A DNA stretch of 64,000 bases from a virus (IMGVR_UViG_3300037258_000931:64001-128000); one strand, 5' to 3'. Positions 7,304-39,798 are shown, numbered from the stretch's first letter. Notes: generated by a model not told the origin, from the sequence alone. A program made the numbers and translations.

Positions 7304-7382
7304 CGAGACACATGCCCCCGCGACTTTTGCGGAACAAGCAATGGCTCAGGACCAGTAATGGCCCCTGGGCCATTACTGTTTC
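7304..7382 (+). ncRNA. Structured cis-regulatory RNA element, copy 1 of 7
   Basis: GAG..CATGCC, hairpin, AACAAGC, then hairpin AATGGCTCAGG..CCA GTAA TGG..CCTGGGCCATT. Confidence 0.7.
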
Positions 7383-7470
7383 CACTCGACCGAATCTTAA
7401 TTATCCGGGAGAGTCCCCAGCGTATGAACAGCGCGGGGGGAGTCCAATATGTTCCGAAGGAGAGCGAATC

Positions 7471-7584
7471 ATGGCCAAAGGTATGCGGGTCCGGAAGATG
7501 GACATCACCTGCACTAAAAAAGGCACCAAGCGCGTGAAAAAGCTTGGCAAGAAAACTCACAAGAACCTGGCAGTGAAGGGCTAG
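7471..7584 (+). CDS. Small Lys/Arg-rich peptide (37 aa, MAKGMRVRK...)
   Basis: AAGGAG RBS; strongly basic. Confidence 0.65.
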   Translation: MAKGMRVRKMDITCTKKGTKRVKKLGKKTHKNLAVKG

Positions 7585-7595
7585 GCCGGGCGATT

Positions 7596-7706
7596 ATGGC
7601 CAAGCGTAAGCGGGTGAAAGTGGAGCTAGTGCAGCTCAAGAAGATGCGTCCCCCGGTGCATGACACTGGCAAACGTACGCTCCGCAAAAGCGGCGTGAAA
7701 AAGTAA
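7596..7706 (+). CDS. Small Lys/Arg-rich peptide (36 aa, MAKRKRVKVELVQLKKMRPPVHDTGKRTLRKSGVKK)
   Basis: Read by hand, below the ORF-track cutoff. Confidence 0.55.
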   Translation: MAKRKRVKVELVQLKKMRPPVHDTGKRTLRKSGVKK

Positions 7707-7809
7707 ACGCCGATCGACGCGGGACTGAGCGTGTCTCGGGGAGGGGTTTATCTACTCCGAGCGGATTATTTTAGCCAACCTGGATGAGTTCGCGGCGCGC
7801 GAGGGATGG

Positions 7810-9900
7810 ATGCCGACGCCGCACTCGTTCGACCAGGTTGAAGAGTTCAAAAAATACGTCGATTCGCTGGTCAAGGTCGAAACCAACAGCCGATCCTCGT
7901 ATATCTCGGTGGTGCGCACGATCACGGAGAAGCGGCGCCAGGAGATCCGCCGCTGGATCGAGAACGAGCAGGCCCTCTGTGCTCTCGACAGCGAGTATTT
8001 CGAAAGTCGCTACGCCTACGTTTGCAATGAGGGCGGCGAGATCTACAAGTTCAAGAATCGTAAATCTCAAGAGATCTTCGACAGCGTGGTCGCCGACTTC
8101 GACGAACGCCAGGTGGCGATCCGTTTGCTGGTCCTGAAAGCGCGGCAGGTAGGCATCACCACCAAGACAGCGCTGAAATTTCTACATCGCATGCTTTTTA
8201 TTCCGCACACCCAGGCGGTCATGGCGTCGGTGCAGGCGGAAAAGTCGGAGCTGATTCGAAGGATTCTGGAGATCGCCTACAACCGTTGCCCGTGGTGGCT
8301 GGTGCCACCGCGGAAGCCGAAGGGTGCCTATGACAACGGCTCGGTCCTCTCCATCCAATCCGGCATGCAGGCCACCGGCATTGCGCAGGGTTGGACGCCG
8401 ACCTGTATTCACATTTCCGAGTTGGCCGATATTCCCAAGCCGAAGAAAGTGATTGAAGAAGGTCTGCTGCGCGCCACGCACGCGACCCGAAACCTGTTCA
8501 TGGTGTTTGAAGGCACCGGCGGCGGCAACACCGGCTGGCTGGCCGATACCTGGCGGGCCGCCCGCGAGGGGTTTCCCAAGGGCCTTCACGATCTTTGCCC
8601 GGTGTTTATTCCCTGGGCGATGGCGACGGACCTTTATCCGGAAGCGGATTGGTTGCGCCAGTTTCCGGTGCCATCCAATTTTTATGAGAAACGGGATGAC
8701 GCCACCCGCAAGCACGTGACCCGGGCCGAACTTTACGTCCGCAACACCCCCTATCTGGCCAAAGTTGTAGGAGCGCGCTGGCGCATGCCGCTGGAGCAGC
8801 AGTGGTTTTGGGAGTTCAATTACCTGAAAGCCTGTACCAACAACTCGCAGAAGATCTGGCTGGCGCAGATGCCGGCCGACGATTTCGAAGCTTTGACAGG
8901 TGTGCACGACAGCGTGTTCCCGCCCGAGACGATCGACGAGATGGAAGACCACGTCTACGAAATCGTTGGCTCGGAAAAAGTTCGCAAAAAGCCGCTGCAG
9001 GCGTACGCGATTACCGGCGACTCGATCGACGACGGATTCGAAGTGGACGACTCAGCCGTTGACTTCGGTAAGCCGCACATCCGGGTGAGATGGCTCTCGC
9101 ACCGCGGCCAGAAGTACGATTGGGTGCTGGTGCCGCTCAAGCCGCTCGACGAAGACAATGAGGCTGCGACCTTCGACAAGCTTCTGGTATATGAAGAGCC
9201 TAAACAAGGTTATAGCTATAGCTGCGGGGTGGATACTGCGGACGGCTTAGGAAAGGAAGACGAAGACCGGACCTGCGTGTCGATGACCCGCAATCGCTTT
9301 GGCGACCAGTTTGATTACCAGGTGGCGGAGTTTGTATCGAATCGCGTGAACGCGGCTCAGGCGGTAGGGTTCTCGGCTTGCATGGCGGCATGGTATGGGC
9401 AATATTCGACTGACGGCCGTGGAGTGAAGTTCTGCATCGAGCAGGTGACCCGGCCCGGCGATACCTGCCAGCACCAGCTTATGCTGATGGGATTTCACAA
9501 CCATCACAAGCCACGGCGGTATGACAGCAAGCAGGTGAAGGACGACGGCGGCAAGAAGATGGGCTGGTTTTCGAATGTATGGAGCGTGCCAATTTTGATG
9601 ATCAATTTCACTGAGGCGGTGAATGGAGGATGGTACCGGCCGCACTCGAAGTGGCTGATCGATGAGCTGAAGACGCTGGAGCGGCACGCGGCAGCGGGAC
9701 GGCAGTCGAAGATGACGCATCGTTCTGGGAAGCATGACGATCGGGTACGGGCGGCGGCACAGTCATATTTCACGGCGCACGATTTTGACGTGCTTGCGGA
9801 GCGGGCGCAAAAGCGATACGCTCTGCCGGAAGAAAAGATGAAGCCGCTGCCGATGGGGCGCGGTTCGATGAACATGGTAGGGGTCGGAGATTGGGATTGA
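7810..9900 (+). CDS. terL: Terminase large subunit
   Basis: LKARQVGITT Walker A, CIHISE Walker B, FEGT coupling motif, GVDTADG and HDDRV RNase H-like nuclease motifs. Confidence 0.92.
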   Translation: MPTPHSFDQVEEFKKYVDSLVKVETNSRSSYISVVRTITEKRRQEIRRWIENEQALCALDSEYFESRYAYVCNEGGEIYKFKNRKSQEIFDSVVADFDERQVAIRLLVLKARQVGITTKTALKFLHRMLFIPHTQAVMASVQAEKSELIRRILEIAYNRCPWWLVPPRKPKGAYDNGSVLSIQSGMQATGIAQGWTPTCIHISELADIPKPKKVIEEGLLRATHATRNLFMVFEGTGGGNTGWLADTWRAAREGFPKGLHDLCPVFIPWAMATDLYPEADWLRQFPVPSNFYEKRDDATRKHVTRAELYVRNTPYLAKVVGARWRMPLEQQWFWEFNYLKACTNNSQKIWLAQMPADDFEALTGVHDSVFPPETIDEMEDHVYEIVGSEKVRKKPLQAYAITGDSIDDGFEVDDSAVDFGKPHIRVRWLSHRGQKYDWVLVPLKPLDEDNEAATFDKLLVYEEPKQGYSYSCGVDTADGLGKEDEDRTCVSMTRNRFGDQFDYQVAEFVSNRVNAAQAVGFSACMAAWYGQYSTDGRGVKFCIEQVTRPGDTCQHQLMLMGFHNHHKPRRYDSKQVKDDGGKKMGWFSNVWSVPILMINFTEAVNGGWYRPHSKWLIDELKTLERHAAAGRQSKMTHRSGKHDDRVRAAAQSYFTAHDFDVLAERAQKRYALPEEKMKPLPMGRGSMNMVGVGDWD

Positions 9901-10219
9901 AGATATTCAAACGCACTGGAGTGATTTGGAGAGCATTACGAAAGGCCCTCACGGCACCGTTGCCGGTGGGGCATGTCGAAGTCACGATCGGGCCGCGGGC
10001 GGAGACGCTGCAAGAGTTTTTCAAGCGCCAGACACGCGGCGTTAAAACACGCGAGCGCGAGCATCCGGTGATGATGAATTACCGGGAGCGGCATCTGCAA
10101 ACCCGCGGAGAGCTGGGATCGCAAGCAGATAACGAAGATCATGCCACTCATGCTTCCAAGTGCGGTGGCGCGGCAGTTCTGATGGGCGAGCGCATCTTTA
10201 TCGGCACACCGGAGAGGAA

Positions 10220-10609
10220 ATGAACGCGCAGCTTGCTAGAAAGATCGTTTATTGGTACGACGAGACGACCGGGGACATCCGCATGGGTCTGCCGGAACAG
10301 TTTCCCGCGCCGCGCGGGTTTCAGAAGATTGTTTGCAACTCCGCGCATGAAGCGGAGACCTGGTCTGAACGGATGCGGCGCTGGGAGCGGATCAAGCAGC
10401 AGATGGAGGACGAGCAACGGGAGTTGGTTGAGGGCCCGATCCGGGCTAACTTGCGCAGTTATATGCATCACCAGATGGCCAACGCGCGGAATAACATGAA
10501 TCGCGAGTTTCTACGCCAGCATTTGGAGCAGTATGGAGCGCGCCCGGACAAAACCAAGACCACGCGGGAGAGTTATCTGCACGCGGAGGGATTCGAGCAT
10601 GGGCATTGA
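10220..10609 (+). CDS. Hypothetical protein
   Basis: ATG after GGAGAGG. Confidence 0.65.
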   Translation: MNAQLARKIVYWYDETTGDIRMGLPEQFPAPRGFQKIVCNSAHEAETWSERMRRWERIKQQMEDEQRELVEGPIRANLRSYMHHQMANARNNMNREFLRQHLEQYGARPDKTKTTRESYLHAEGFEHGH

Positions 10610-10928
10610 GATCGATCGTCGCAGCTTTTTAACTCGGTTCGGGTGGGGCGCCGCCGCGGCCGCAGTTCCGCTTGCGCCCGCGGTTGTTTCGGCGACGCCA
10701 AACGATACGGTCGGACCATTGTTGCTTGAAAGGGTCTGCGACTGGTTTGAGGGATACACGCCGGAACAAAAAGCGGAGGCCCTCAAAGAGAATCCCGGTC
10801 GGTACGCTGGATGCGGAATTAGATTCCGCTGGTACTTTGGCTCGGGTTGTATGTGTCCGCAGTGTGGATGGACGTACTGCGTTACGCTTGAAGATATCAG
10901 GAGCAAGAGATTTCAGGTGCAAGCATAA
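10599..10928 (+). CDS. Cys-rich protein with a twin-arginine (Tat) signal-like N-terminus
   Basis: IDRRSFLT followed by a hydrophobic Ala-rich stretch; CMCPQC in the C-terminal half. Confidence 0.6.
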   Translation: MGIEIDRRSFLTRFGWGAAAAAVPLAPAVVSATPNDTVGPLLLERVCDWFEGYTPEQKAEALKENPGRYAGCGIRFRWYFGSGCMCPQCGWTYCVTLEDIRSKRFQVQA

Positions 10929-11105
10929 GTCTAGTCCAGAATATAGATTTTACGATTTATCTCGACCTATTCAGTCTTACTGGTTCTAGATAGGATTAAC
11001 TTGCGCTTTCGCTGAAATTGGTGTAGACGCGCAGTTTGACTTTACCTAGTATCCGCCCATGTGCATTGCCGAGCTGGAAGTGCTCTGCCGGCACCTTGAG
11101 GGCGC

Positions 11106-13148
11106 ATGGAGTTAGAGACAACCCACTGGCAGGTTCCCAAGTTTGAATCGAGCCCGACCGCGCGCATCGGCTGGGTGGAAGAACAGATTCAGGAGGGCGA
11201 AGGATTTCTGGAGGGCCAGGCATGTTATCGCAACCTGGGCACGAACCTTCGCGTCTTCGACGCCATTTTTCGCGATAAATCCCGTTCGACGCTGATCACC
11301 AACGAGCTGAAGTACGACATCCGCAAGTTTTGCGAGACGTTGGCGGAGGTGCGGGAGATCGCCGCCTACGGATCGGACGTGCCGGCGTACAAGCAGTACG
11401 CCGAGATGCTCACCAAAGTGGCGCGCGCGGTGTATCTGGAGTCCGATTTCCCGTCTCAGGTACTGAAATGGCTGCAATACGCCAGCGTGATGGGAATCGG
11501 ATATCTGTGGCCGAAGGTACGGGCAGACGAGTACGGATACGGCGAGCGAAAGATGGTGTTCGACGCACTAGGGCTGCTCGACGTGGTTCCCATTCAGATT
11601 CCGCGCAGCAACGATGTGCAGGATGCGTACGCGGTAACCATCTACGATTACATGCCGATTGCCGAAGCTCACGGCCGGTTCTCACTTTTCCAGGGACAGT
11701 TACAGACCGTGGGCCCGCGCAGCTATAAGACGCAGGTGCAGGCCAAGCGACTGGATTATGCCGAGCGTTTCCGTTACGGAGAGCAGGGGCGTAGCTTCGG
11801 GAATCTCTATTCGGAGATTCGCTACACGTTTATTCGTGACCTGCGCATCAACAACACCGGTTTTGAGCTGCCGATGGGCGACCCGGGAACGACCTGGTTT
11901 TACAAAGTTCCATATCTGGGGCAGCAGATCTTCGGCGGGATGCGCAACGGGCAGCCGTATATGCGCAGCGCCATGGTCGAAGACTGCCGGGTGTACCCGA
12001 CGTTGCGGCTGATCATTACTTCACCAGGCGTGGACCGGCCGATGTACGACGGACCCTGCTTTGACTGGGACAGCAAGTTTCCGGTAATTCAGCTTACGGT
12101 GGACGATTGGGCCTGGGAGGCGCTGGGGCGGTCGCTGGTAGGCGACGTGGCGACAATTGAAACGACCACGCGCAAGATCGAACGGAAGATCGACGACGTG
12201 ATTACCATCACGTTGAATCCTCCGATTGGCTATGACCACACCGCGACGGGCGGCGCTAAGATCGAGCACTTCGACATCTTTGAGCAAGATGTACGTTACG
12301 GGGTAGACGGCAAGCCGAAGGAGATCCTGCAATCGATTTTGCCCGAAGAAGTACGCGTAAATAATGAGCATTTCACCTTTTTGAAGTACCTGAAGGACTG
12401 CAAGCAGTCGCAACTTGGATTGCTGGACATGGGGAATCTGCAGAACATCAAGATGAATATTGCCAACGACACGGCGGACAAGATGCTGGAAGGCATTGGG
12501 CCGCTGGCCAAGGGCATCGCCGCGCGAATTGAAAAGGCGAACAAGGCGGTCGGGCGCCGAATGATGTTCCTGATTATGCAGTGGTTCAACGCCAGCCGTT
12601 TGATGGAATACGTCGGCCCGGAGAACATGGCGCGGGAGATGTTCGATTTCGACCCCAGCAACCTGGTGCCGAGCCATTTGCCGGACGAGATGGTGAACGG
12701 CGAGCTCCCGGTTACGCCGTCGCAATATGACCAGCTCACGCGGGCGCGCTGGTTTGTGCGCCAGATCCGGCTGATCTCGGTGCCGAGCACGTTGCTCCGG
12801 ATTACCCAGATGCAGGAGCAGTTGAAGTATCTGCAGCTCAAGCGCGGTAACGCGCCGATTTCATGGGCAACCGTGATGAAGAAGCTGGGAGTGGAGAACT
12901 ACGGCGATGTGAAAGGCAACACGGAGCGCGAGCGGTGGTTTAACGAAGAGTTGGAGACGCAAAAGCTGCAAATTCTAGCCGCGGCGCAGGCGCAACAACT
13001 GATGAAGCAGCTCGGAATACAGCCGCCAGAGCAAGGTGCAGGCGGAGGCAAGCCGCAGGGGCGGCCCACGACGGGCAATAAGGCTCCGAAGATCAAGCAA
13101 AAGGGCGGCGCGGGCGGCGCGCCACGCACAACGGTGACGGAGAGCTAG
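11106..13148 (+). CDS. Probable portal protein
   Basis: 680 aa, between terminase and scaffold/capsid; Q/G/K-rich C-terminal tail; call rests on synteny and size. Confidence 0.7.
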   Translation: MELETTHWQVPKFESSPTARIGWVEEQIQEGEGFLEGQACYRNLGTNLRVFDAIFRDKSRSTLITNELKYDIRKFCETLAEVREIAAYGSDVPAYKQYAEMLTKVARAVYLESDFPSQVLKWLQYASVMGIGYLWPKVRADEYGYGERKMVFDALGLLDVVPIQIPRSNDVQDAYAVTIYDYMPIAEAHGRFSLFQGQLQTVGPRSYKTQVQAKRLDYAERFRYGEQGRSFGNLYSEIRYTFIRDLRINNTGFELPMGDPGTTWFYKVPYLGQQIFGGMRNGQPYMRSAMVEDCRVYPTLRLIITSPGVDRPMYDGPCFDWDSKFPVIQLTVDDWAWEALGRSLVGDVATIETTTRKIERKIDDVITITLNPPIGYDHTATGGAKIEHFDIFEQDVRYGVDGKPKEILQSILPEEVRVNNEHFTFLKYLKDCKQSQLGLLDMGNLQNIKMNIANDTADKMLEGIGPLAKGIAARIEKANKAVGRRMMFLIMQWFNASRLMEYVGPENMAREMFDFDPSNLVPSHLPDEMVNGELPVTPSQYDQLTRARWFVRQIRLISVPSTLLRITQMQEQLKYLQLKRGNAPISWATVMKKLGVENYGDVKGNTERERWFNEELETQKLQILAAAQAQQLMKQLGIQPPEQGAGGGKPQGRPTTGNKAPKIKQKGGAGGAPRTTVTES

Positions 13149-13176
13149 CGGTCTGAGCTCGTTGAGATCTGTAGGT

Positions 13177-13216
13177 TCCCACCCATCGCAGAAGGTGCGA
13201 CAGATGGGACACCCGG
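13177..13216. repeat. REP-like palindrome family B, copy 1
   Basis: TCCCACCCATCGCAGAAGGTGCGACAGATGGGACACCCGG; relatives at 32623 and 49803. Confidence 0.65.
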
Positions 13217-13291
13217 AATCAGGAGTCAGCGTAAGGACGCGAGGGAGTATCTCTGGGTCTGTAAACGCGCTGCTACATTTACGGAGGATTC

Positions 13292-13531
13292 ATGACGGTT
13301 GGGATTCGAGTTCAAAAGGATTATTACTTGACCGAGGTTAGCCTGGAGTTGCCTGCGGACCTGACGCAGATTAACGAGATGCTGAAAGCGACCTCGACTA
13401 CGGGCAAGCTGATCGTGCAGTATAACAAGGGCTCGGTGCAGGGAATCAATATCGAGCAACGGACCAAGATCACAGACGCCCAGGCGAATGAAATTCGGCC
13501 GCTTTTAGAGATCGGCGAAAAAATTTTGTAA
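13292..13531 (+). CDS. Hypothetical protein (79 aa)
   Basis: GGAGG RBS. Confidence 0.7.
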   Translation: MTVGIRVQKDYYLTEVSLELPADLTQINEMLKATSTTGKLIVQYNKGSVQGINIEQRTKITDAQANEIRPLLEIGEKIL

Positions 13532-13539
13532 ATGAGCGC

Positions 13540-13568
13540 TTGACACGCAAAAAAAAGCGGCTTATACC
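13540..13568 (+). promoter_or_regulatory. Candidate sigma70 promoter
   Basis: TTGACA-N17-TATACC. Confidence 0.55.
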
Positions 13569-13626
13569 ACAGGAAGCATTCAACACCAGCCGCCGGATGC
13601 TTGATTGAACCGGCGGGGCTACGAAT

Positions 13627-13705
13627 ACGAGCGACATGCCCCCCCTCCTTGGGGAATAAGCAATGGCTCAGGACCAGCGATGGCCTCTGGGCCATTTCTG
13701 TTTTT
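13627..13705 (+). ncRNA. Structured cis-regulatory RNA element, copy 2
   Basis: ACGAGCGACATGCCC..GGGGAATAAGCAATGGCTCAGGACCA GCGA TGGCCTCTGGGCCATTTCTGTTTTT. Confidence 0.75.
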
Positions 13706-13732
13706 GTGCAATTCAACCCAAGGAGAAAAATC

Positions 13733-13840
13733 ATGGCAAAGCGGAAGCATCACAGCGCAATGAAGGCGAGCCACCTGAAGAAGGGCAAGGGCAAGCGTCA
13801 CCACAAGGGCGGCCACAAGAAGAGCGCCATCAAGGCTTAA
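13733..13840 (+). CDS. Small Lys/His-rich peptide (35 aa, MAKRKHHSAMKASHLKKGKGKRHHKGGHKKSAIKA)
   Basis: AAGGAG RBS; followed by a terminator. Confidence 0.75.
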   Translation: MAKRKHHSAMKASHLKKGKGKRHHKGGHKKSAIKA

Positions 13841-13846
13841 TCACAG

Positions 13847-13879
13847 CCCCGCCGGGCACACGATGCGCGGCGGGGTTTT
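13847..13879 (+). terminator. Intrinsic terminator
   Basis: CCCCGCCG/CGGCGGGG stem followed by TTTT. Confidence 0.6.
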
Positions 13880-13904
13880 GGTTGTTCGCTCCACGGGAGA
13901 TTGA

Positions 13905-14183: not shown

Positions 14184-14230
14184 AAACAGGGAACACGAAA
14201 GATCAGAACCGATTTGGAGAACGCACTGGA

Positions 14231-15292: not shown

Positions 15293-15368
15293 TGAGACGC
15301 ATGCCCTCCGCGATGGCGGAAATAAGCAATGGCTCAGGTCCATAAGTGGCCTAGAGCCATTTTTATTT
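15293..15368 (+). ncRNA. Structured cis-regulatory RNA element, copy 3 (upstream of the major capsid gene)
   Basis: TGAGACGCATGCCC TCCGC GATG GCGGA AATAAGC AATGGCTC..GAGCCATTTTTATTT. Confidence 0.75.
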
Positions 15369-15387
15369 CAGCCTAAGAAGGTGAACA

Positions 15388-16620
15388 GTGCCAACCGATC
15401 CGCTGTACAACGAAATTGACGCGTCCAACCTGGAGAGTGTCCGCCGGAACGTGGTGTTCAACAACCTGTTTGTGGACACGCCGTTTCAGGCCAAGCTGCG
15501 CCGGGCCGGGGTATGGGATGAATTCCTGGGCGGCGCCGGCATGATGGAAGGCATTCTCTACGGCCGCACGCAGGGCGCCGCGGTGAATCCAGGCCAGACG
15601 GTCACTGTGACCCGCCAGCAGATCAACACCGGCATCAAGTTCCTGCCCAAGGCGTATGCCACCTGGTATCCGCTGGACGACTGGGAGATGGATGACGGCT
15701 CCGGTACGGGGGGAGTGATCAACTCCGGTCCGTCGAAGATTGTGGACGAGTACCAGCTCTTCATGGAGACCATGGTGATGACCATGAACACCATGCAGGA
15801 GATGGATTCGTTCCGTCATGGTCAGCCGTCGTCGTCCACGGTGCAGGACAACCGCATCAAGGCGATCAACGGCCTAGATGAGGCGCTCAACAACGGCATC
15901 GATCCGTCGGTGTTCGGCAATATTTACACCAATTACGGTGGCCAGCAGCGTAATGGCAATATCGGCACGGCGCTGAACACGACGCCGGTGTATTGCGGCA
16001 CGACGAGCGGCGGCACGGGCCAGATTGACTTTGCGGTGCTGATGCAGTTGTGGTCGCAGTGCAAGGTGGCCGGCGGAAACCCGACGCTGGGTATCACAAA
16101 CGTGTTCGGCTTTAAGGCGATCGCGGTTGCGCTCGACGCGCAGCGCCGCGACGTTTCGAATACTCGTCACGACATCAAGTGGGACGGCCTGGTGTTTAAC
16201 GGCGTGGATATTTACGCCGATCCGCTGGCGCCTTCCGCGCAGGCGGGAAACTACATCGAGCTGGCGCCCACCAACGGCGCGGCCGGCAACACCAACCTGG
16301 CCGATGGCGTGGGTTCAAGCACGCAGACGGTTGCTTTCACGACGCCGCAGTTCACCAAGAACGGCGCCAACGTGACGGTTTCGCCGACCGGCTCGAATCT
16401 GCCTTCGACGACGACGATTCAGCCTTCCGAGGTTTTGTATTTTCTGGAGCCGGAAAGCTTCAAGATTCGGCCGACGAACAAGAAGGGCTGGAACTTTGGT
16501 CTGCGCCGGGCGCCGATGCCGAACAACGTGTCGATCGACGCCTTGTTTATGCGGCTGGGCACGAATCTTTACAACGTTCAACCGCGGCACAACGACTACG
16601 CATTCGGATTTACGGCTTAA
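15388..16620 (+). CDS. Probable major capsid protein
   Basis: 410 aa, GTG start after AGAAGG, strong G/C-ending codon bias, position after the scaffold. Confidence 0.75.
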   Translation: MPTDPLYNEIDASNLESVRRNVVFNNLFVDTPFQAKLRRAGVWDEFLGGAGMMEGILYGRTQGAAVNPGQTVTVTRQQINTGIKFLPKAYATWYPLDDWEMDDGSGTGGVINSGPSKIVDEYQLFMETMVMTMNTMQEMDSFRHGQPSSSTVQDNRIKAINGLDEALNNGIDPSVFGNIYTNYGGQQRNGNIGTALNTTPVYCGTTSGGTGQIDFAVLMQLWSQCKVAGGNPTLGITNVFGFKAIAVALDAQRRDVSNTRHDIKWDGLVFNGVDIYADPLAPSAQAGNYIELAPTNGAAGNTNLADGVGSSTQTVAFTTPQFTKNGANVTVSPTGSNLPSTTTIQPSEVLYFLEPESFKIRPTNKKGWNFGLRRAPMPNNVSIDALFMRLGTNLYNVQPRHNDYAFGFTA

Positions 16621-17992: not shown

Positions 17993-18023
17993 ACGGCTCT
18001 TGCTAACCGCAGGAGCCGTTTTT
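17993..18023 (+). terminator. Intrinsic terminator
   Basis: ACGGCTCTTGC/GCAGGAGCCGT stem followed by TTTT. Confidence 0.6.
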
Positions 18024-18039: not shown

Positions 18040-19275
18040 GTGGCTTTTTCAAACATGATTCAAGAGCTGCTGGGGATTCCGGGGGTCAACTTCGGTTTGG
18101 CTAAGACCAAGCTGAACGAAGCCTTTACCGCGATCCAGAACGAGCACGTGTGGAGCTTTCAGCTCCAGACGGCCGGCTGGCTCACGCCCGGTTTGCTGGG
18201 CGGCCCTTCCGTCGAGTTCTTGAGTCCGGGAACGATTACGGTAACTCCGTTCACGAATACCATTCTGGGCGATGCTGCGGCGACGCAGGCGTGGCTGGGC
18301 GCGCTTATCAATCCGCCGATTTTGACTCAGCAGCAGATCCGGGTTCCTTACTACAGCTTGTACAGCATCATCGCGGTGGCCAGTGCGGACACGGTCGCCT
18401 ATCTGACCGTAGATACGCCGGGCTCGGGGCAAACCACGGGCACCTACATCGTGAACGCCGTAGGAACGCCGGGCTCGGGGGCGCAGGCTCAGATTGTGGT
18501 GAACGCGGACGGCGAGGTCACAGAGACCCCGGTAGTGGTAAGTCAAGGCTCGGGATATACGAGCGCTCCGACATTCACCCTGACAGCCGGAGGCACGCCG
18601 GCCACGTTTACGGCAATCCTGAATGCCGTTCTTACCATCGACCGGCCATGGATGGAGCCGCAGCAGGTCAACGGCACCTACATGGTTTACCAGGCATATT
18701 ATGCGGCGCCGGCCGGGTTCAAGCGCTGGTACAACATTCGCGACACAACCAACAACAACCCGATGGACTTTTGGAGCAAGACGCAGATTGACCTGGCCAA
18801 TGAGGACGCCGAGCGCACGGATTTCGATTTGCCTCTATATGTGGTTCCTTATGGGCCAGACACGCGGCCGGGCAGCGCGACTTATGGACAGATGCTCTTT
18901 GAGCTATGGCCGCACCCTATCACGCAACTGCCGTATACGTTCGGCTGCCAGACTAACTGGCCGACGCTGGTAAACCTTTCCGACACGCTTCCGTTTCCAC
19001 TGACCGACGAGATTGTGAAGTTGCGCGGATACGAGATGCTCTACCTCTGGAAGGAGTCCCAAAAGGGGGATGAGATGGAGCGCGGGTCTGGAGCGAACTG
19101 GGAATTTTTGGTGGGCGCGGCGAACGCGGAGTATCGGAATCGGCTGCAGCAGTTGAGCAATATGGACCGCAATCTTGTGGATCTCTATTTCACCAAGATG
19201 CAGCGGTTCCCGTCCGCGTACGGCGAGCCTTACGCAACGGAAACCGGCCAATTGAATGTGGGCGGATGGAACTAA
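18040..19275 (+). CDS. Putative head-tail adaptor with a Gly/Thr-rich insertion
   Basis: GTG after GGAG; synteny only. Confidence 0.45.
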   Translation: MAFSNMIQELLGIPGVNFGLAKTKLNEAFTAIQNEHVWSFQLQTAGWLTPGLLGGPSVEFLSPGTITVTPFTNTILGDAAATQAWLGALINPPILTQQQIRVPYYSLYSIIAVASADTVAYLTVDTPGSGQTTGTYIVNAVGTPGSGAQAQIVVNADGEVTETPVVVSQGSGYTSAPTFTLTAGGTPATFTAILNAVLTIDRPWMEPQQVNGTYMVYQAYYAAPAGFKRWYNIRDTTNNNPMDFWSKTQIDLANEDAERTDFDLPLYVVPYGPDTRPGSATYGQMLFELWPHPITQLPYTFGCQTNWPTLVNLSDTLPFPLTDEIVKLRGYEMLYLWKESQKGDEMERGSGANWEFLVGAANAEYRNRLQQLSNMDRNLVDLYFTKMQRFPSAYGEPYATETGQLNVGGWN

Positions 19276-26567: not shown

Positions 26568-26677
26568 ACGAGCGACATGCCCCCCGCAAGGCAGTGAACG
26601 GTGCCCAGTGCACAGTGAGCAGCCCAAGGGAAAAAGCAATGGCTCAGGCCCAGCAATGGGACTGGGTCATTTTTTTT
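26568..26677 (+). ncRNA. Structured cis-regulatory RNA element, copy 4 (expanded variable stem)
   Basis: Shares CGAATACGAGCGACATGCCCCCC with copy 2; AATGGCTCAG..CCA GCAA TGG..CTGGGTCATTTTTTTT. Confidence 0.7.
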
Positions 26678-26737
26678 GCATCCCGGCGATCGGTTGAAGC
26701 GGCGGGAAATCTGGTTTTTGCGGGCGGTCGCGCGGCG

Positions 26738-31963: not shown

Positions 31964-31971
31964 GAGGACCT

Positions 31972-32175: not shown

Positions 32176-32278
32176 CGAGCGGCATGCCCCCCGGCCGAGG
32201 TCAGTTTCCAGATCTGACGCTAGTCCGGGAAGACGCAATGGCTCAAGTCCAGCAATGGCCTTGAGCCATTGCTGTTTT
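32175..32278 (+). ncRNA. Structured cis-regulatory RNA element, copy 5
   Basis: ACGAGCGGCATGCCC CCCGG..CCGGG AAGAC GCAATGGCTCAAG..CCA GCAA TGG..CTTGAGCCATTGC TGTTTT. Confidence 0.7.
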
Positions 32279-32293
32279 GCGCAGGGGGAGAGC

Positions 32294-32551
32294 ATGGCGA
32301 AGCTCAGCTACAAGAAGCGGAAGAAGCTACCGGGCAAGGATTTTGCCGAGCCCGGCAAGCGCAAGTATCCGGTGAACGACAAGGCGCACGCGCGCAATGC
32401 GCTGGCGCGGGTTTCCCAGCACGGCACGGCTGCCGAGAAGGCCGCGGTGCGCAAAAAGGTGCACGCCAAATTCCCGGAGATCGGGGAGCATCGGAAGAAG
32501 GCTCCGCACCGCAAGCGCTCGTCGCGCAAGAAGAGCTGGATGAAGGCGTGA
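32294..32551 (+). CDS. Basic DUF6582-like protein
   Basis: LSYKKRKKLPGKDFAEPGKRKYPVNDKAHARNALARVSQ resembles the DUF6582 pattern (recollection). Confidence 0.65.
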   Translation: MAKLSYKKRKKLPGKDFAEPGKRKYPVNDKAHARNALARVSQHGTAAEKAAVRKKVHAKFPEIGEHRKKAPHRKRSSRKKSWMKA

Positions 32552-32622: not shown

Positions 32623-32662
32623 TCCCACCCATCGCGAAGAGCGCGATGGATGGGACACCCGG
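32623..32662. repeat. REP-like palindrome family B, copy 2
   Basis: TCCCACCCATCGCGAAGAGCGCGATGGATGGGACACCCGG. Confidence 0.65.
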
Positions 32663-32702
32663 CTGTGGCTGATTATAGACGGCTGTAAGGACGGGATTCG
32701 GG

Positions 32703-34019: not shown

Positions 34020-34171
34020 GCATGGGAGCGAATCAGGACCGAAAGACAGGCGCGCCGGGGCTGAAGACCTGGCGGCGCCCGGGGGGCATTTCGCCCAGCG
34101 GTTTTTCGATGCTGGCGGTTACGAAGACGAAAAACAGCAAGAAGGCGAGCAAGAAGAGCGCGGCGAAGTAG
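34016..34171 (+). CDS. Small Lys-rich peptide (51 aa, ends KTKNSKKASKKSAAK)
   Basis: ATGA overlap with the upstream stop; read by hand. Confidence 0.4.
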   Translation: MSMGANQDRKTGAPGLKTWRRPGGISPSGFSMLAVTKTKNSKKASKKSAAK

Positions 34172-34190
34172 CGTGGCCCAAAACGGTTCG

Positions 34191-34219
34191 TTGTGTTGAA
34201 GGTTTTGTGGCGGTATTCT
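34191..34219 (+). promoter_or_regulatory. Candidate promoter ahead of RNA element 6
   Basis: TTGTGT-N17-TATTCT; same pattern at 39681. Confidence 0.5.
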
Positions 34220-34231
34220 CGAAGAGCAATC

Positions 34232-34310
34232 CGAGACGCATGCCCCTCGCCCGCGGCGAGAACAAGCAATGGCTCAAGACCAGAGATGGCCTTGGGCCAT
34301 TTTCTTTTTC
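34232..34310 (+). ncRNA. Structured cis-regulatory RNA element, copy 6
   Basis: GAGACGCATGCCC CTCGCC CGC GGCGAG AACAAGC AATGGCTCAAG..CCA GAGA TGG CCTTGGGCCATTTTCTTTTT. Confidence 0.75.
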
Positions 34311-34319
34311 GGGGTGTGC

Positions 34320-37300
34320 GTGGCCAATCCTCAAAACTATCAGCGCAGCGCGAACGGCATTCGCTTTGAGCCGGGGGGCATGGACACAGTTCATCCTCTC
34401 GATGCGTTGCCGCCGGCTAAATACGGTTACCTGCAGAATGTTCGGGCTTATCGGCAATTGCAGATCGCGGCGCGGTCCACGGAGAGCGCGGCGCTGGTAA
34501 GCGCGCTGCCGGGCGTGGTGCATTCTCTGCGGTTGTTGAACGATACCACTCCGGGCGGACCGGCCGCGGGTTACGTCCGAGTGATCGGCGCCGCCGGAGC
34601 GCTGTACGTGAATTCGATGGAGGTGGGGACGGGCTACAGCGCCAATCCGGTGTCGCTGTGCCCTTTTCGGCCGAATGCTTCTGTAAAGCCCTATATGTAT
34701 ACCGGCGATTCGTCGGAGAGTGTGACCATCGACACCGAGTATGTGATCGACGGGACCCCAACCACGTTTGACTGCACGGGCATGACCAAGGTGCGCTCCG
34801 ACGGGGTGATCTTCAAAACGGGGGTGGCCGAGCCGCAGATCGCGCCCATGGTTTCGACTGCGGACTACACCACGATGGGCACCGACCTGTTGCCGGCCAC
34901 GGCCGTTCCATGGACCAATGTGGGCGGAGTGAACCCGGAGTACAACTACGGCCAGACAAATGGCGCAGACGGGACGGCACCGATCGTGATCACAGGCGGC
35001 GGCCCGACGCTGGTGTACGGGTCGACGATCACGCTGACCGTTACGGGCTCTGCCACGGTGAACGGAACAACGCATGGGCCCGGCGATTCGGGACCTAGTT
35101 CGAGCACCTATCCTGGCGCTTTTATCGTGAGCCCGACGATTGTGGTGGGCGCTTTCACCGATATCAGCGGCAACGTGGTACCGCCGACGACGGGCGAGAC
35201 GCTGGTGTTTCCGATTGGGGCCAGCGCCACGCTGACGGTGCCCGCCAATGCGGCTCAACTGCAGGTGGGCATCGATTCCTCGGCCAACACTTTTTCGGCC
35301 AACAGCGGCAGTTTCAGCATCGACTGGTCGGTAACGGTGAGCGCCGTAGCCACGGTGATTTCGACCTTAGGCAATGTGACGGCTTATGTGTGGGGAACGC
35401 CGCCGCCTACCGGGGGAGGTTCGCCGCATACAGGCCCCGTGGCGTCTTACATCTGGAAGAATCCGAACGACGTGGGCACGGGCATTCCTCGCTCGATTAC
35501 CGACCCGGTCCCGGATGGATCGCCCACTAATAACTCGTGGGTACTCGATTCATCGCCGGAGAATGGCACGGTTCCGGTGAACTGGAACGTACTCAATGCG
35601 GATGGGTCGATCGCGAGCACCATTCCCCTTTTCGATCCGCAGCTTGAGTCGGAGGGATACCAGGACTTTAACTGCTGCATCGTCGGCAATCTGTTTGTGC
35701 CGGCGGCAGGCAGCTATTCGTTCACCGTCCAGTACAAAGACCAGATCATGGTGGGCTTTGGCGGCGGAGCGACGGTGGTGTATTCCTCCGGAGCCACGGG
35801 CATGACTACGGGCAGCAACGGGCAAACGCTCACCGTGGTCAACGCGCTGCCGCTGGGCTTTGTTAGCGTTGCGGATGGGGGGGGAGGCTCGAAGTCTACC
35901 ACTTTCAGCGTTACGTTCCCTGGGACCGGAGTCTACGCGCTCGAAATCGACTGGGATTACTGGGACAAGAGCGGCCGGTCGCTGATTCTGACCACGCCTT
36001 CTTCGTCACCGAACTCACCGACGATTCCGCCGCTGCCGGTGGGGGTGAGGACCGGGGTGCAGTACCGGTACGTCTATCGCAGCTCGGTGACCGGAGCGCT
36101 CTCCAACCCTTCGCCCGAATCGCCGCTGCAGCAGACGCCGGTGCTGGCCAACGAGGTGACCTCGGTTTATTCCACCGATCCGCAGGTGGACAAGGTGGAT
36201 TATTACCGGCTGGACGAGGCGCTTACCAACTTTACCTACGTGGCCACCGGGCCAAATGACGGCCTGGGGGGCACCGTGGACGGGGTGACCTACAACACGC
36301 CGATCGAAGACGAGCTTTCAGACACGGCGGCGGCGGCGAACCCGCTGCTGGAGTTCGATAACTTCGAACCTTTCCCTGCAGTAGATCTGCCGCGCAAAGG
36401 AGTGATCGACATCACCGGCGGGGTGGCCACCTGGATCTCCGGAGATCAGTTCGACGTTCGCTGGCTGCCTGGAACGGACGTTTTGGTGGGCTCACCGACC
36501 GCGTTGGCTTATACGACCACGGCGCGGCCGACCTCGACAACGACGCTGTCGCTCGAAGATGTGCCGGACGGCACCAATGTGGCGTATGAGATTCCCGAGC
36601 CGCTGCTGGCCGCGCAGCCGTTGCCTTACCTATGGGGTCCGACGGACAACACGGCGTATATGTTCGGGGTGGGCGATCCACTGAACCCAGGAACGCTTTA
36701 TTTCACCAAGGGCAACAATCCCGACGCGGCTCCGGATACCAACCAGATCGCGGTGACCAGCCCGGCCGAACCGCTGATCAACGGATGCATCACGTCGGGA
36801 CTGGGCATGGTGTTTTCAGCCGAGCGGCGGTGGCTGATCTATCCGACTTTTACCACCGCCCTGGCCACAGTGAGCGGCGTGGCCGGCAGCCCGTTCAACC
36901 TGGTGCTGGGATCTTCCGAGCGTGGTTTGTTTATTGCCACCTGCATTACGACGGATGGTGGCAGTGTGGCATTTTTCCGGGCCAAGGACGGCATTTACGC
37001 TTGTAATTTCGGAGGCACGGACCAGTTTCTCTGCGCCGATATCTACAACCTGTTCCCGCGAGAAGGCATTACGCCGCAGCCGGTGACGGTGGCTGGCAAC
37101 ACGATCTGGCCGCCGGACGACCAGCGTCCGAATGCGCAGAAGCTGGCTTACGCGACCGGCTATCTGTATTACGACTATGAAGATCTATACGGAGTTCCAC
37201 GCACCCTGGTGTATGACACCATCGCCAAGGGATGGTCAGTGGATGTGGGCGAGTATCCGTTTACAGCCCATGCTCTTGAGGAAGGGCCGGAGACCAACAC

Positions 37301-38333
37301 GGTGATGGTAGGCTGCGCGGACTCCAGCGTGCGGACGTTGGGACTGGCGAACTACGAAACCGGCAACGCGGTGGTGGTGCCGGGGGCGCAGAATGCCGGC
37401 GACGCCCGCGCCTTCAAGCGCATTGGCGACGTGTTTATCAAAGCGATCGTTACCGACTCCGGTGCGGTAAACGTAAATCTCTATTCAAATCGCTACGCGA
37501 CGGCGTTGACCGGATTTTCGCCTACGTCATTGACGGGAACCGGTGGGCTGCTCCCCTACGTGGTGGACTTTACGGACGGCTATGGCTACGACTTGATCGA
37601 CATTGGAGTGTCGCTGACCTGGCCGCTTTCAGCGGGCAACATTCTCGATCTGTGGCAGCCGGACTGGATCAATCTGCCGGAGTCCACGCAGGACCGGCCG
37701 ACGGACTGGGACGACGGAGGAACGACTGGCAACAAGTTTGTGCAGGGAATGATTCTGGAAGCTGACACGTTCAACGTGCCGAAGCTGGTGCAGGTGCAAC
37801 GGGCGGACGATTTAAGTATCCTGACGCCGAACGAGGCGCCGATTACTTACAACAAGCAGAGTATCAAGCCGCTGACGTTTACGCCGCCCTTTGTGGCGCA
37901 CTCGTTCCGGGTGGTAAGCACGGACGGAGTGCCGTGGCGGATGTGGGGGGTGAAGTGGATTTACCAACCCTTTCCGGAGTCGACGGTGGAGTGGCAGACG
38001 GAATTTACCTCGCACGGGATGCCCGGGTGGCAGCACTTGCGGGAGATGAACATCGCCTATCTTTCGACCACGGCGCTGACGTTGACGCTGAACTTCGACC
38101 AGTGGCCGACGATCACGCTGACCATCCCGAGTTCGAACGGGGCGCAGTTCAAATACAAGACGCCGATCCCGGCCAACAAGTGGAAGCTGATCTCGTATGG
38201 GATCACTTCGACGGCGCCGTTTTATCTGTTCAAGGACCAGTGTGAAGCGAAGGTAAAGCCGTGGGGATCGAGCGGGCCGTATTCGATCATCACGCCGTTT
38301 GGCGGACCGGAACAACTGGGAGCGGTGGTTTAG
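34320..38333 (+). CDS. Probable tail nozzle/stabilisation protein with a PA14-like insertion
   Basis: 1337 aa beta-rich protein before the ejection genes; GNLFVPAAGSYSFTV..GVYALEIDW PA14-type pattern. Confidence 0.55.
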   Translation: MANPQNYQRSANGIRFEPGGMDTVHPLDALPPAKYGYLQNVRAYRQLQIAARSTESAALVSALPGVVHSLRLLNDTTPGGPAAGYVRVIGAAGALYVNSMEVGTGYSANPVSLCPFRPNASVKPYMYTGDSSESVTIDTEYVIDGTPTTFDCTGMTKVRSDGVIFKTGVAEPQIAPMVSTADYTTMGTDLLPATAVPWTNVGGVNPEYNYGQTNGADGTAPIVITGGGPTLVYGSTITLTVTGSATVNGTTHGPGDSGPSSSTYPGAFIVSPTIVVGAFTDISGNVVPPTTGETLVFPIGASATLTVPANAAQLQVGIDSSANTFSANSGSFSIDWSVTVSAVATVISTLGNVTAYVWGTPPPTGGGSPHTGPVASYIWKNPNDVGTGIPRSITDPVPDGSPTNNSWVLDSSPENGTVPVNWNVLNADGSIASTIPLFDPQLESEGYQDFNCCIVGNLFVPAAGSYSFTVQYKDQIMVGFGGGATVVYSSGATGMTTGSNGQTLTVVNALPLGFVSVADGGGGSKSTTFSVTFPGTGVYALEIDWDYWDKSGRSLILTTPSSSPNSPTIPPLPVGVRTGVQYRYVYRSSVTGALSNPSPESPLQQTPVLANEVTSVYSTDPQVDKVDYYRLDEALTNFTYVATGPNDGLGGTVDGVTYNTPIEDELSDTAAAANPLLEFDNFEPFPAVDLPRKGVIDITGGVATWISGDQFDVRWLPGTDVLVGSPTALAYTTTARPTSTTTLSLEDVPDGTNVAYEIPEPLLAAQPLPYLWGPTDNTAYMFGVGDPLNPGTLYFTKGNNPDAAPDTNQIAVTSPAEPLINGCITSGLGMVFSAERRWLIYPTFTTALATVSGVAGSPFNLVLGSSERGLFIATCITTDGGSVAFFRAKDGIYACNFGGTDQFLCADIYNLFPREGITPQPVTVAGNTIWPPDDQRPNAQKLAYATGYLYYDYEDLYGVPRTLVYDTIAKGWSVDVGEYPFTAHALEEGPETNTVMVGCADSSVRTLGLANYETGNAVVVPGAQNAGDARAFKRIGDVFIKAIVTDSGAVNVNLYSNRYATALTGFSPTSLTGTGGLLPYVVDFTDGYGYDLIDIGVSLTWPLSAGNILDLWQPDWINLPESTQDRPTDWDDGGTTGNKFVQGMILEADTFNVPKLVQVQRADDLSILTPNEAPITYNKQSIKPLTFTPPFVAHSFRVVSTDGVPWRMWGVKWIYQPFPESTVEWQTEFTSHGMPGWQHLREMNIAYLSTTALTLTLNFDQWPTITLTIPSSNGAQFKYKTPIPANKWKLISYGITSTAPFYLFKDQCEAKVKPWGSSGPYSIITPFGGPEQLGAVV

Positions 38334-38350
38334 GTGCGGTTGGCAGAGAC

Positions 38351-38510
38351 CAGGGATCAGTTGTCAGGGATCAGGGATCAGTTAGAAGCAAGAACAAAAG
38401 CAAGAGCAACCGCGGGTCCTTCGGCTCCGGTCGCTTTGCTCCCTTCGCTCAGGATGACAGGCTTTTGCTTTTCTCTGACCCCTGATCTCTGATCCCTGAC
38501 CCCTGATCCC
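38351..38510. mobile_element. Composite MITE/REP-like element family A, copy 1
   Basis: (CAGGGAT)n left arm, AAAAGC tract, core GGTCCTTCGGCTCCGGTCGCTTTGCTCCCTTCGCTCAGGATGACA, GCTTTT tract, (CTGATCC)n right arm. Confidence 0.7.
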
Positions 38511-38530
38511 CGCTTGTGAAAGGTTGGGCT

Positions 38531-39658
38531 ATGAGCACCAACGGCGGTACGCCTGCGCAGAAGTATTTCCCGCAGATCGATAAGAACGTGCAGGCGGAGG
38601 TGACGGTCCACCTGCAGCGGCTGTACACGGCCATCAACGACCACGATCAGGCGATTGTGACGTTGAACAACAAGGTGACCGGCGGCGCAAGTTCGACCGC
38701 AGGCTCGACGACCAACATCACTTCGACCACCACGGAGTTTGTGACGACCGGGGGGGTGACGTCGTTCAATGCGCTGACCGGGGCGATCGTTTACTTCCCT
38801 TTTTTAGGCACGGTCAACAATCAATCGGGAGTGGTTTCTTACACCACTCAAACCGGCGACAACGGCGCTCTGGTCGTGCTGGATGACGCTTCAGCCATTG
38901 CGGTGACCTTGAATTTTGCGGTGATGACGCCGTGGTTTACGACGATCTCGAACCAGGGATCGGGCACGGCGACGATTACGCCGAGCCAGGGGTTGATCAA
39001 CGGCGGAGCTTCGATTTCGATCGCCGGCGGCCTGTATGTGACGATCTTCTTCGATGGCGCCAACTGGTGGGCGGACAGCGAGACGGGGGGCGGCGGGGGC
39101 GGAACGATTACCGCAGTCGTGGCGGGAACGGGGCTGAATGGAGGCGGCTCCAGCGGCTCAGTGACCTTGAATCTTGACGTGCCGGTAGCGGTGGCGGACG
39201 GCGGGACGGGGACGACTACGCCGAGCCTGGTGGCGGGAACCAACGTGACGATTACCGGAACGTGGCCAGACCAGACCATCAATGCTTCGGGCGCCAGCGG
39301 ATTGCCGGTGAACGATCCGACATTTACGGGGACCATGACCGGACCGCATTATGCTTCGAATGGATCTGCGCCCACCGTGACTGTAGGACCAGCCGCAGGA
39401 ACTGGTGCGACTGCCACCGTTGCCGGGACAGACACAGCCGGCGTTATTTCTTTGGTTACCGGCGCGGGGCCGAGTACAGGTCTACTGCTCACCGTTGCCT
39501 ACACCAGCAGCTATCCGACTGGTTCCGTTGTCATTGTCAACGCGGCCAATCCGGCGGCTTTATGTTTCGCAGCCGGGACTGCCACCTCGTTTGGGGTTTC
39601 GGCAGGAGGAGTGGCCACCGGCTCTTATGAGATCGCTTATATTGTCTCTGGGATGTAG
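38531..39658 (+). CDS. Tail fibre-like protein
   Basis: Gly/Thr-rich; shares a 34-aa module with the 19764 protein; no signal peptide. Confidence 0.6.
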   Translation: MSTNGGTPAQKYFPQIDKNVQAEVTVHLQRLYTAINDHDQAIVTLNNKVTGGASSTAGSTTNITSTTTEFVTTGGVTSFNALTGAIVYFPFLGTVNNQSGVVSYTTQTGDNGALVVLDDASAIAVTLNFAVMTPWFTTISNQGSGTATITPSQGLINGGASISIAGGLYVTIFFDGANWWADSETGGGGGGTITAVVAGTGLNGGGSSGSVTLNLDVPVAVADGGTGTTTPSLVAGTNVTITGTWPDQTINASGASGLPVNDPTFTGTMTGPHYASNGSAPTVTVGPAAGTGATATVAGTDTAGVISLVTGAGPSTGLLLTVAYTSSYPTGSVVIVNAANPAALCFAAGTATSFGVSAGGVATGSYEIAYIVSGM

Positions 39659-39680
39659 GATGAGCATTGACTTTTACCGA

Positions 39681-39709
39681 TTGTGCCCAGAGATAGGTAG
39701 GGCTATTCT
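39681..39709 (+). promoter_or_regulatory. Candidate promoter ahead of RNA element 7
   Basis: TTGTGC-N17-TATTCT. Confidence 0.5.
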
Positions 39710-39723
39710 GTAGGAGCAGTTCA

Positions 39724-39798
39724 ACGAGCAACGCGCCCCCTTGCCAAAGGAACAAGCAGCGGCTCAAGACCGGAAACGGTTTTGGGCCGTTTTCTTTT
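39724..39798 (+). ncRNA. Structured cis-regulatory RNA element, copy 7 (covariant)
   Basis: GAGCAACGCGCCC CCTT GCCA AAGG AACAAGC AGCGGCTCAAG ACCG GAAA CGGT TTTGGGCCGTT TTCTTTT. Confidence 0.75.

Follow-up and report, generated by a model that had tools for sequence, protein, structure and literature searches.

A repeated leader RNA with competing predicted folds, a candidate conditional terminator, ahead of the virion genes of an uncultivated phage

Introduction

Attenuation by competing terminator and antiterminator helices is a known class of gene control, and its protein-dependent form operates in the leaders governed by BglG, SacY, and LicT through the ribonucleic antiterminator (RAT), by PyrR, by TRAP, and by ribosomal protein L4 in the S10 leader. 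Here, we describe an RNA element that occurs in seven copies ahead of virion genes in IMGVR_UViG_3300037258_000931:64001-128000, a 64,000-nucleotide stretch (the window; positions count from its first base) of a phage genome that forms a single contig (132,674 bp, 60% G+C). Each copy consists of a 5' box, a hairpin (P2), a linker, and a terminator-like hairpin (P3) followed by a U-rich tail; in the alternative fold, the 5' box pairs with the linker and the outer 5' arm of P3 to form a helix (P1), and the 3' arm enters another hairpin (P3'). As in RAT-type attenuators, the antiterminator hairpin of the leader is weak and bulged and has its 3' strand in common with the terminator 5' arm, the terminator is thermodynamically favored, and read-through would need a stabilized alternative fold. 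The ribosomal-protein leaders add a further parallel, since there the controlled operon itself encodes the regulator, a small basic protein. The phage element differs from RAT systems in being present in many copies in a late region and in having, with P3', a fourth segment to take up the 3' arm once it is released. It contains no RAT-like consensus and no match to RAT in sequence or structure, and the RAT-binding domain family CAT_RBD (PF03123), which was found in control genomes, is absent from the phage genome.

A second group of related systems controls phage late genes. In the lambda PR'-qut-tR' unit, a constitutive promoter and a close terminator give a short RNA unless the antiterminator Q acts. 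Q works through DNA and a sigma-dependent pause, and N works through the boxB loop and Nus factors. The likeness lies in the temporal control of virion genes and in gene order, PL-nutL-N resembling the order promoter, element, basic protein gene found here; judged by sequence, the phage units also have the late promoter and promoter-proximal terminator of Q control. Neither lambda system, however, has an RNA helix that competes with the terminator, and lambda has a single late unit where the element would control seven. In addition, the genome lacks Phage_antitermQ (PF06530), the one Q family searched for; the P2 loop is not conserved between copies; and the adjacent basic protein is Lys/His-rich. 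The put RNA of phage HK022 is comparable in position, being a structured RNA of about 70 nt that directly follows a phage promoter and acts in cis on the transcribing polymerase, but it neither overlaps a terminator nor is bistable, whereas the phage element competes for the left arm of its terminator. Together with EAR and the leaders of conjugative elements, put belongs to the RNA-only processive antiterminators. Leader antitermination in the conjugative element Tn916 is the subject of a published account (PMC11658703), to which we refer for that topic alone.

Riboswitch and T-box expression platforms likewise contain mutually exclusive terminator and antiterminator helices, both with covariation. 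The phage element differs from them in lacking a conserved ligand pocket: all it has for an "aptamer" is a bulged hairpin whose apical stem varies, and the genes behind it are structural. As far as our searches show, neither Rfam nor the literature searched describes this RNA family, the four-segment design, the link with a very small basic protein, or the multiplication of promoter and leader as a unit across the virion genes of a phage.

Results

A Leader RNA in Seven Copies

The original prediction, made from the sequence by inspection, had placed seven copies of a covarying RNA in front of late genes. Two covariance models run over the entire 132,674-bp genome return all seven at those positions, each on the plus strand, and none elsewhere; weaker minus-strand echoes of the models are the near-palindromic P3 hairpin in reverse reading. 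The seven stretches are clearly homologous and 80-110 bases long. The 13-mer core AAGCARYGGCTCA is found without mismatch at six of them and with one mismatch at the remaining copy, far above random expectation.

Each copy opens with a 5' box of consensus GAGMNRCATGC, that is, GAG(A/C)-N-R-CATGC, with CGCGC in copy 7. P2 is a C-rich/G-rich hairpin whose sequence and length differ from copy to copy, from 3-4 bp to a 50-nt branched insert. An A-rich linker (AAYAAGC) leads to P3, a 15-bp hairpin of the form AATGGCTCARGNCCA-loop-TGGNCYTGRGCCATT closed by a tetraloop. The loops are GNRA in six cases (GTAA, GCGA, GCAA, GCAA, GAGA, and GAAA), as had been noticed by eye, and TAAG in copy 3. In all seven copies, T occupies 6-8 of the 10 nt 3' of P3, and the tracts are interrupted (TTTCTGTTTT). 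P3 shows the sequence features of an intrinsic terminator, a stable GC-rich hairpin with an immediate U-rich tract on the transcribed strand, and was partly detected by a terminator scan. No known riboswitch class had been recognized by inspection, and Rfam searches of the entire window agree: no family matched at gathering thresholds, and at permissive E-values two copies gave only chance matches of the microRNA or long noncoding RNA type. Megablast of 14 kb against the GenBank phage collection returned no match.

Covariation in Competing Helices

Homologues for comparative analysis came from relatives of the phage collected by their major capsid protein, as described below; the alignment model held P2 and P3 only, with the 5' box aligned by sequence alone. 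P3 is paired in 96% of cells, against 19-56% when the partner columns are slid, and 11 of its 15 pairs have changes on both sides; with its U-rich tail, it is conserved across the family. P2 covaries at every pair.

P1 joins the 5' box to the linker and the outer 5' arm of P3 through GAG(C):(G)CTC, CAT:ATG, and GC:GC. Pairing reaches 91% in the alignment of close homologues (A2) and 83% in that of distant ones (A3), compared with 27-51% in slid columns. Five pairs show double changes (A:U to G:C or U:A, U:A to G:C or C:G, G:C to A:U, C:G to G:C, and G:C to U:A). Because three of the covarying pairs involve the linker, which lies outside P3, the P1 signal is no by-product of the terminator. Divergent lineages add further independent variants of P1 (TAGT:ACTA, AAGC:GCTT, and CTC:GAG). 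The G-U pairs, of which U-G in P3 is a frequent example, fit the plus strand only, which points to an RNA of that strand.

Predicted folds agree with this picture. When the RNA is cut after the left arm of P3, P1 plus P2 is the minimum-energy fold in all seven window copies and in 90 of 98 distinct homologues. At full length, P3 is preferred in five of the seven copies, whereas in copies 1 and 2 the folds are near iso-energetic and the best one combines P1 with P3'. In this 3' hairpin, the loop and inner 3' arm of P3 have the outer 3' arm and the start of the tail as their partners. The variable nucleotide of the GNRA loop is complementary to its tail partner in 44 of 48 sequences (A:T 30, C:G 12, T:A 1, and T:G 1), pair 57:69 switches from U:A to C:G, and 80% of cells are paired overall. 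P3', as an option for the 3' arm, was not part of the original prediction.

Copy 7 illustrates all of these constraints at once. Its private changes (CAT to CGC in the box, ATG to GCG in the left arm, CAT to CGT in the right arm, and CCA/TGG to CCG/CGG at the apex) amount to five concerted substitutions that preserve all four helices, so the covariation in both folds that had been claimed for this copy is real. The mutually exclusive stem proposed earlier also gains independent standing from covariation in more than 100 homologues and from the nascent folds of all seven copies. An upstream segment thus pairs with the 5' arm of the terminator, to the exclusion of the terminator, and this pairing is evolutionarily maintained. 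The alignments show that P1, P2, and P3 are under evolutionary selection, P3' less strongly, and the element is, as modeled, a four-segment bistable RNA in which fold I consists of P2 and P3 and fold II of P1, enclosing P2, and P3'.

The unpaired positions within P1 are an N-R bulge, with a purine before the second part of the helix (P1b), and an asymmetric C(C) loop opposite AAYAA, ACAA, or AUAG. When the natural upstream sequence is included, P1 is kept in 31 of 98 minimum-energy folds, and with shuffled upstream sequence in 35%. No evidence thus emerged for a specific upstream competitor that would block P1 in transcripts coming from the operon before it. We also considered a leader-peptide reading frame beginning ATG-CCC-CCC in the 5' box. 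This ATG is not conserved, being CGC, CAG, CGT, or CTT in copy 7 and many relatives, and it changes always together with P1; the leader-peptide reading is therefore rejected.

Promoters Ahead of the Element

A sigma70-type promoter, TTGACA followed by 17 nt and TAnAnn, lies upstream of about two thirds of the distinct copies in the family, a firmer link than the original prediction had drawn when it remarked on promoter-like sequences before several copies. TTGACA with at most one mismatch occurs in 82 of 117 distinct upstream regions, nearly always 40-47 nt before the GAG of the 5' box. From this spacing, transcription would start about 6-8 nt before the 5' box. The promoter comes immediately after the stop codon of the gene before it, and no separate terminator intervenes. 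Most exceptions are homologues of copy 3, which sit between the preceding gene and the capsid gene.

In the window, promoters are recognizable at copies 1, 2, 6, and 7, and those of copies 4 and 5 are only weak. TTGACA at 7263-7268, a 17-nt spacer, and TAGAGA at 7286-7291 form the promoter of copy 1 (7263-7291), and relatives have the same sequence type at the same distance. Copy 2 is preceded at 13540-13568 by TTGACA-17-TATACC. The promoter-like sequences of copies 6 and 7 are TTGTGT-17-TATTCT (34191-34219, 42 nt before GAG) and TTGTGC-17-TATTCT (39681-39709, 45 nt before GAG); these and the preceding promoters are on the plus strand. An extra GC-rich hairpin separates promoter and 5' box at copy 2 (13585-13620) and, independently, in the L170 lineage (e.g., L170:8150-8180). 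Paralogous promoters (e.g., L128:2300-2356, L154:7360-7410, and many others) also share an ATTCGG-like motif just 5' of the -10 element and a TAAAGCAATCA-like stretch between the -10 element and the 5' box. These shared motifs may mark the DNA site of a regulator or reflect a promoter trait specific to the host.

Copies and Genes of the Late Block

The copies fill nearly all larger intergenic gaps of a rightward block of virion genes at 7.3-39.8 kb. The distance from U tract to start codon, given as about 10-90 nt in the original prediction, measures 9-90 nt and has no space for a further promoter, so expression of the genes requires read-through. The element therefore has the location of an attenuator, in a 5' leader between a promoter and a gene without another promoter. 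Family searches name just two genes of the window, TerL and the major capsid protein, and most neighboring open reading frames (ORFs) belong to no family. The capsid assignment of the original prediction is thus borne out, while its labels "nozzle", "ejection gene", and "spike" are unverified by family search.

Copy 1 (7305-7384) is divided into 5' box (7305-7315), P2 (7316-7332), linker (7333-7339), P3 (7340-7374, loop GTAA), and U-rich tail (7375-7384). Two plus-strand genes for small basic proteins, at 7471-7584 and 7596-7706, stand between it and the gene for the large terminase TerL (7810-9900). Copy 2 (13629-13706) comprises 5' box 13629-13639, P2 13640-13654 (loop TCCTT), linker 13655-13661, P3 13662-13696 (loop GCGA), and tail 13697-13706; the first gene behind it, at 13733-13840 on the plus strand with a strong AAGGAG ribosome-binding site, encodes a paralogous basic protein of 35 aa. 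Copy 3 (15294-15371; 5' box 15294-15304, P2 15305-15319, P3 15328-15361 with loop TAAG, and tail 15362-15371) is, like its homologues, operon-internal and ends 17 nt 5' of the start of the plus-strand major capsid protein gene (15388-16620, phrog_9953, with more than 80 homologues). At this position, a strong constitutive terminator would make little sense.

Behind the capsid operon lies a plain intrinsic terminator (17993-18019, plus strand) that has the same GGCTC/GAGCC core as P3 and no 5' box. The next virion gene begins with GTG near 18040, about 20 nt further on, and no promoter is visible ahead of it; the 8 kb of genes that extend to 26.4 kb thus seem to rely on read-through as well. 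Copy 4 (26570-26681) has a long, branched P2 (26581-26630), P3 at 26638-26671 (loop GCAA), and a run of eight T. Copy 5 (32177-32280), with a long P2 (32188-32229) and P3 at 32237-32270 (loop GCAA), precedes by 13 nt a plus-strand gene for a basic DUF6582/phrog_16160 protein (32294-32551). Copy 6 (34233-34311; P3 34268-34301, loop GAGA) lies directly 5' of a gene of about 1350 aa, and copy 7 (39726-39801; P3 39758-39791, loop GAAA) carries the concerted substitutions that keep P1, P3, P3', and the apical helix.

Relatives and Spread of the Element

An exact 15-mer scan of viral contigs gave mostly chance single matches, and relatives were collected by capsid protein. This search found at least 80 viral-contig loci and 80 metagenome loci at 63-94% identity, together with a prophage in an Acidobacteriota metagenome-assembled genome (MAG). 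On the relatives' loci, the RNA model gives more than 130 matches on the gene strand at syntenic places. The distinct homologues number more than 100 and come from related phages that are uncultivated and from two prophages of Acidobacteriota. A scan of 151 Acidobacteriota genomes with the model finds prophage copies only (G006 and G033); four further matches proved on inspection to be plain terminators and were discarded. The prophage relatives (L219, L300, and L301 in MAG CAVSAW010000001.1 and L303 in genome G033) support the host assignment. In L219, all copies detected by the model lie on the downstream side of the capsid gene, and the capsid match begins at residue 29, suggestive of a rearranged or degraded head region. 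For the capsid region and gene, the public runs listed are three DNA metagenome runs and no RNA run.

All relatives have a counterpart of copy 2, located about 1.6-1.7 kb 5' of the capsid gene. In each of the relatives examined, 10-40 nt separate it from a strong AAGGAG site and a small basic protein gene, and the same arrangement is seen at divergent versions of the element that the model misses. Since the ancestral copy always precedes this gene, the comparison indicates that the element is ancestrally the leader of the operon running from the small basic protein gene to the capsid gene. A close complete relative carries eight copies and four distant complete relatives (121-143 kb) carry one or two, a distribution indicating that element and promoter have spread together to other virion units within the clade of the window. 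The proposal that the element coordinates virion genes accordingly holds for this clade only and fails for the distant complete relatives. A selfish repeat of the repetitive extragenic palindrome or miniature inverted-repeat type was rejected: copies keep to a single strand in gene orientation, are syntenic among relatives whose capsid proteins are 65-94% identical, and show compensatory changes in non-palindromic helices.

A Small Basic Protein and Searches for a Regulator

The small basic protein is conserved across the entire phage family and confined to it; relatives of the L170 type have two such genes in tandem. Its members are 33-40 aa long with about 40% Lys, Arg, and His, and they follow the pattern MAKR..AH(V/I/L)KK...KK(S/L)AIKA (alignment A7), as does the very basic 35-aa product of 13733-13840 (MAKRK...HLKK...KKSAIKA). 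No Pfam or PHROG family matches the protein, and its Atlas neighbors and 33 profile matches are all "hypothetical". Speculatively, it is a candidate effector or autoregulator of the element.

The P2 loop of copy 2 (13640-13654) reads (C)TCCTT, the exact complement of the AAGGAG site that follows about 60 nt later (13720-13726), and is similar to the 3' end of 16S rRNA. It recurs at the same position in L137, L165, L167, L176, L177, and L184, being kept in several distant lineages, not in all. From this complementarity, an anti-Shine-Dalgarno P2 loop may add a translational layer by masking the ribosome-binding site.

Family searches of the genome returned no match for Sigma70_r2, NusG, or CSD; together with the missing Q family (PF06530), the Sigma70_r2 and NusG results are compatible with late control after initiation. 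T7-type RNA polymerase also gave no match in the genome, in a search whose control matched nothing anywhere. Neither the phage genome nor the control genomes matched ANTAR (PF03861), and the RNA has no dual-hexaloop motif. Two small ORFs upstream of the late block are possible late regulators, judging from weak similarities: 5207-5632 (141 aa) has a helix-turn-helix match below the cutoff (HTH_3, 21 bits) and also matches phrog_8, "transcriptional regulator", and 6067-6270 (67 aa) has a weak zinc-ribbon-like match.

Discussion

A Candidate Conditional Terminator

We propose, with a probability of about one half, that each copy is the 5' leader of a late virion-gene unit and serves as a conditional intrinsic terminator. 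A hairpin and U tract behind a strong promoter and before promoterless genes imply a leader terminator that must be read through, and selection for a helix that competes for the outer 5' arm of that terminator, a hallmark of attenuation, favors a conditional one. Because prophage copies exist, the strong late promoters also need a default off state. The terminator/antiterminator competition that had been suggested for the virion leaders is thus supported by covariation in more than 100 homologues, while a small-molecule riboswitch, the other form considered, appears unlikely.

In the proposed mechanism, host RNA polymerase would start at the strong sigma70-type promoter, and the 5' box would emerge at about +8. 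P2 would fold first, after which the linker and outer 5' terminator arm would pair with the 5' box to form P1. In fold I, the 3' arm would displace P1 and complete P3 before the U tract, and transcription would end there with the release of an RNA of about 85-115 nt. In fold II, P1 would persist, the loop-side segment would capture the 3' arm in P3', the full terminator stem would be completed too late, if at all, and polymerase would continue into the virion genes. A trans-acting factor would tip the balance toward fold II late in infection or after prophage induction. This would most likely be a phage protein that clamps the bulged P1/P2 hairpin, and the 33-40-aa basic protein is a speculative candidate. 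Few, loosely conserved unpaired nucleotides and a freely variable P2 argue against a metabolite pocket and for protein or kinetic control; control is more likely by a protein than by a metabolite, and purely kinetic control is another option.

Several points weigh against this proposal. Termination, its conditionality, the read-through fold, and the identity of the factor are all read from sequence and predicted folds. As modeled, fold II keeps the P3' hairpin before the distal U residues and could also terminate. P1 is predicted to be weak and is lost from minimum-energy predictions with any 30 nt of upstream RNA, so that the operon-internal copy 3 may rarely form it. The plain terminator at 17993 likewise stands directly ahead of virion genes, and read-through may therefore be general, through leaky terminators or a modified polymerase, rather than specific to the element. 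The RNA-binding antiterminator families searched for were not found in the genome, and the basic protein, rich in Lys and His, has the composition of a virion protein that condenses DNA rather than that of an arginine-rich RNA binder.

Alternative Explanations

The same absence of known regulators would be expected of a signal-independent attenuator or insulator, in which a fixed, partly leaky terminator ends the upstream operon and fixes the proportion of short and long transcripts made from very strong promoters, while P1 and P3' tune the leak and give read-through mRNAs a base-paired, nuclease-resistant 5' end. Such a device fits the promoters that directly follow a stop codon without a separate terminator, the interrupted U tracts typical of partial terminators, the genes that lie behind the plain terminator at 17993, and the start of P1 about 8 nt from the predicted 5' end. 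Before a promoterless capsid gene, however, a fixed attenuator would lower the product most needed; four covarying helices and near iso-energetic folds exceed the needs of a rheostat; and near-consensus late promoters in a temperate phage call for a true off state. We regard this explanation as unlikely.

Processive antitermination, of the kind loaded at lambda nut or HK022 put, would assign P1/P2 a different task: alone or with a phage protein, it would bind the polymerase, and the modified enzyme would resist P3 and all downstream terminators, such as that at 17993, leaving P3 to stop unmodified polymerase only. The promoter-proximal position of the hairpin is conserved (about +8 to +50), terminators without a 5' box occur within the late region ahead of more genes, and the order of promoter, RNA site, and small basic protein gene parallels lambda PL-nutL-N. 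A hairpin also precedes the U residues in both folds, and exclusion of a hairpin may by itself not explain read-through. The covariation, however, describes a competition of 5' box and 3' arm for the left arm that a pure loading site would not need; the P2 loop is not conserved and nothing resembles a boxB loop; no NusG-like or Q-like protein was found in the family searches (Q as PF06530); and distant relatives have a single copy despite many late genes. A loading site thus seems to us decidedly doubtful.

The terminated transcript might instead itself be the product, as one of six to eight near-identical, abundant small RNAs that work in trans against targets of the host or the phage, or that titrate an RNA chaperone. 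Each copy is indeed a self-contained unit of about 85-115 nt from promoter to terminator; its layout of single-stranded 5' box, hairpin, A-rich (ARN-like) linker, and terminator with U tail resembles Hfq-type small RNAs, and its copy number has expanded in one clade. We consider this very unlikely, because the 5' box changes in concert with the linker and left arm of the same copy, privately in copy 7 and differently from lineage to lineage, which indicates intramolecular pairing rather than conservation of a seed, because the downstream genes have no other promoter, and because copy 3 homologues usually lack one. Finally, a small-molecule riboswitch with P1/P2 and its internal loop as an aptamer for a metabolite that reports host state would account for the mutually exclusive folds with an expression platform and for the lack of a protein candidate of known family, but is hardly credible given few and loosely conserved unpaired positions, a P2 whose size varies between 3 bp and a 50-nt branched insert, the lack of an Rfam match down to permissive thresholds, and structural rather than metabolic genes under control.

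Implications for Phages of Acidobacteriota

Late-gene control is textbook knowledge for a handful of model phages, which use sigma factors, Q, N, Ogr, or a phage RNA polymerase. The conditional terminator proposed here is a candidate, and a well-supported one, for another solution, in which near-consensus host promoters are gated by a portable, bistable leader RNA. It occurs in widespread, uncultivated phages of 120-143 kb and in prophages of Acidobacteriota from soil and peat, and to our knowledge almost no phage molecular biology exists for this phylum. More than 100 natural variants are available in the family, with compensatory changes that bear on two competing folds, and a clear evolutionary path is visible, from one copy ahead of the operon running from basic protein to capsid to seven or eight copies.

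A more specific and rather improbable version of the proposal would make the basic protein a counterpart of Tat acting on TAR: by binding the P1/P2 hairpin of nascent late transcripts, it would lock the read-through fold. If this were so, leaky read-through would feed back positively and flip all late units on together, and a self-timing switch made of a protein and a bistable RNA would replace late sigma factors or Q in these soil phages. Should the adjacent basic peptide be the effector, it would form with the leader a minimal protein-RNA antitermination system that is usable as a genetic part.

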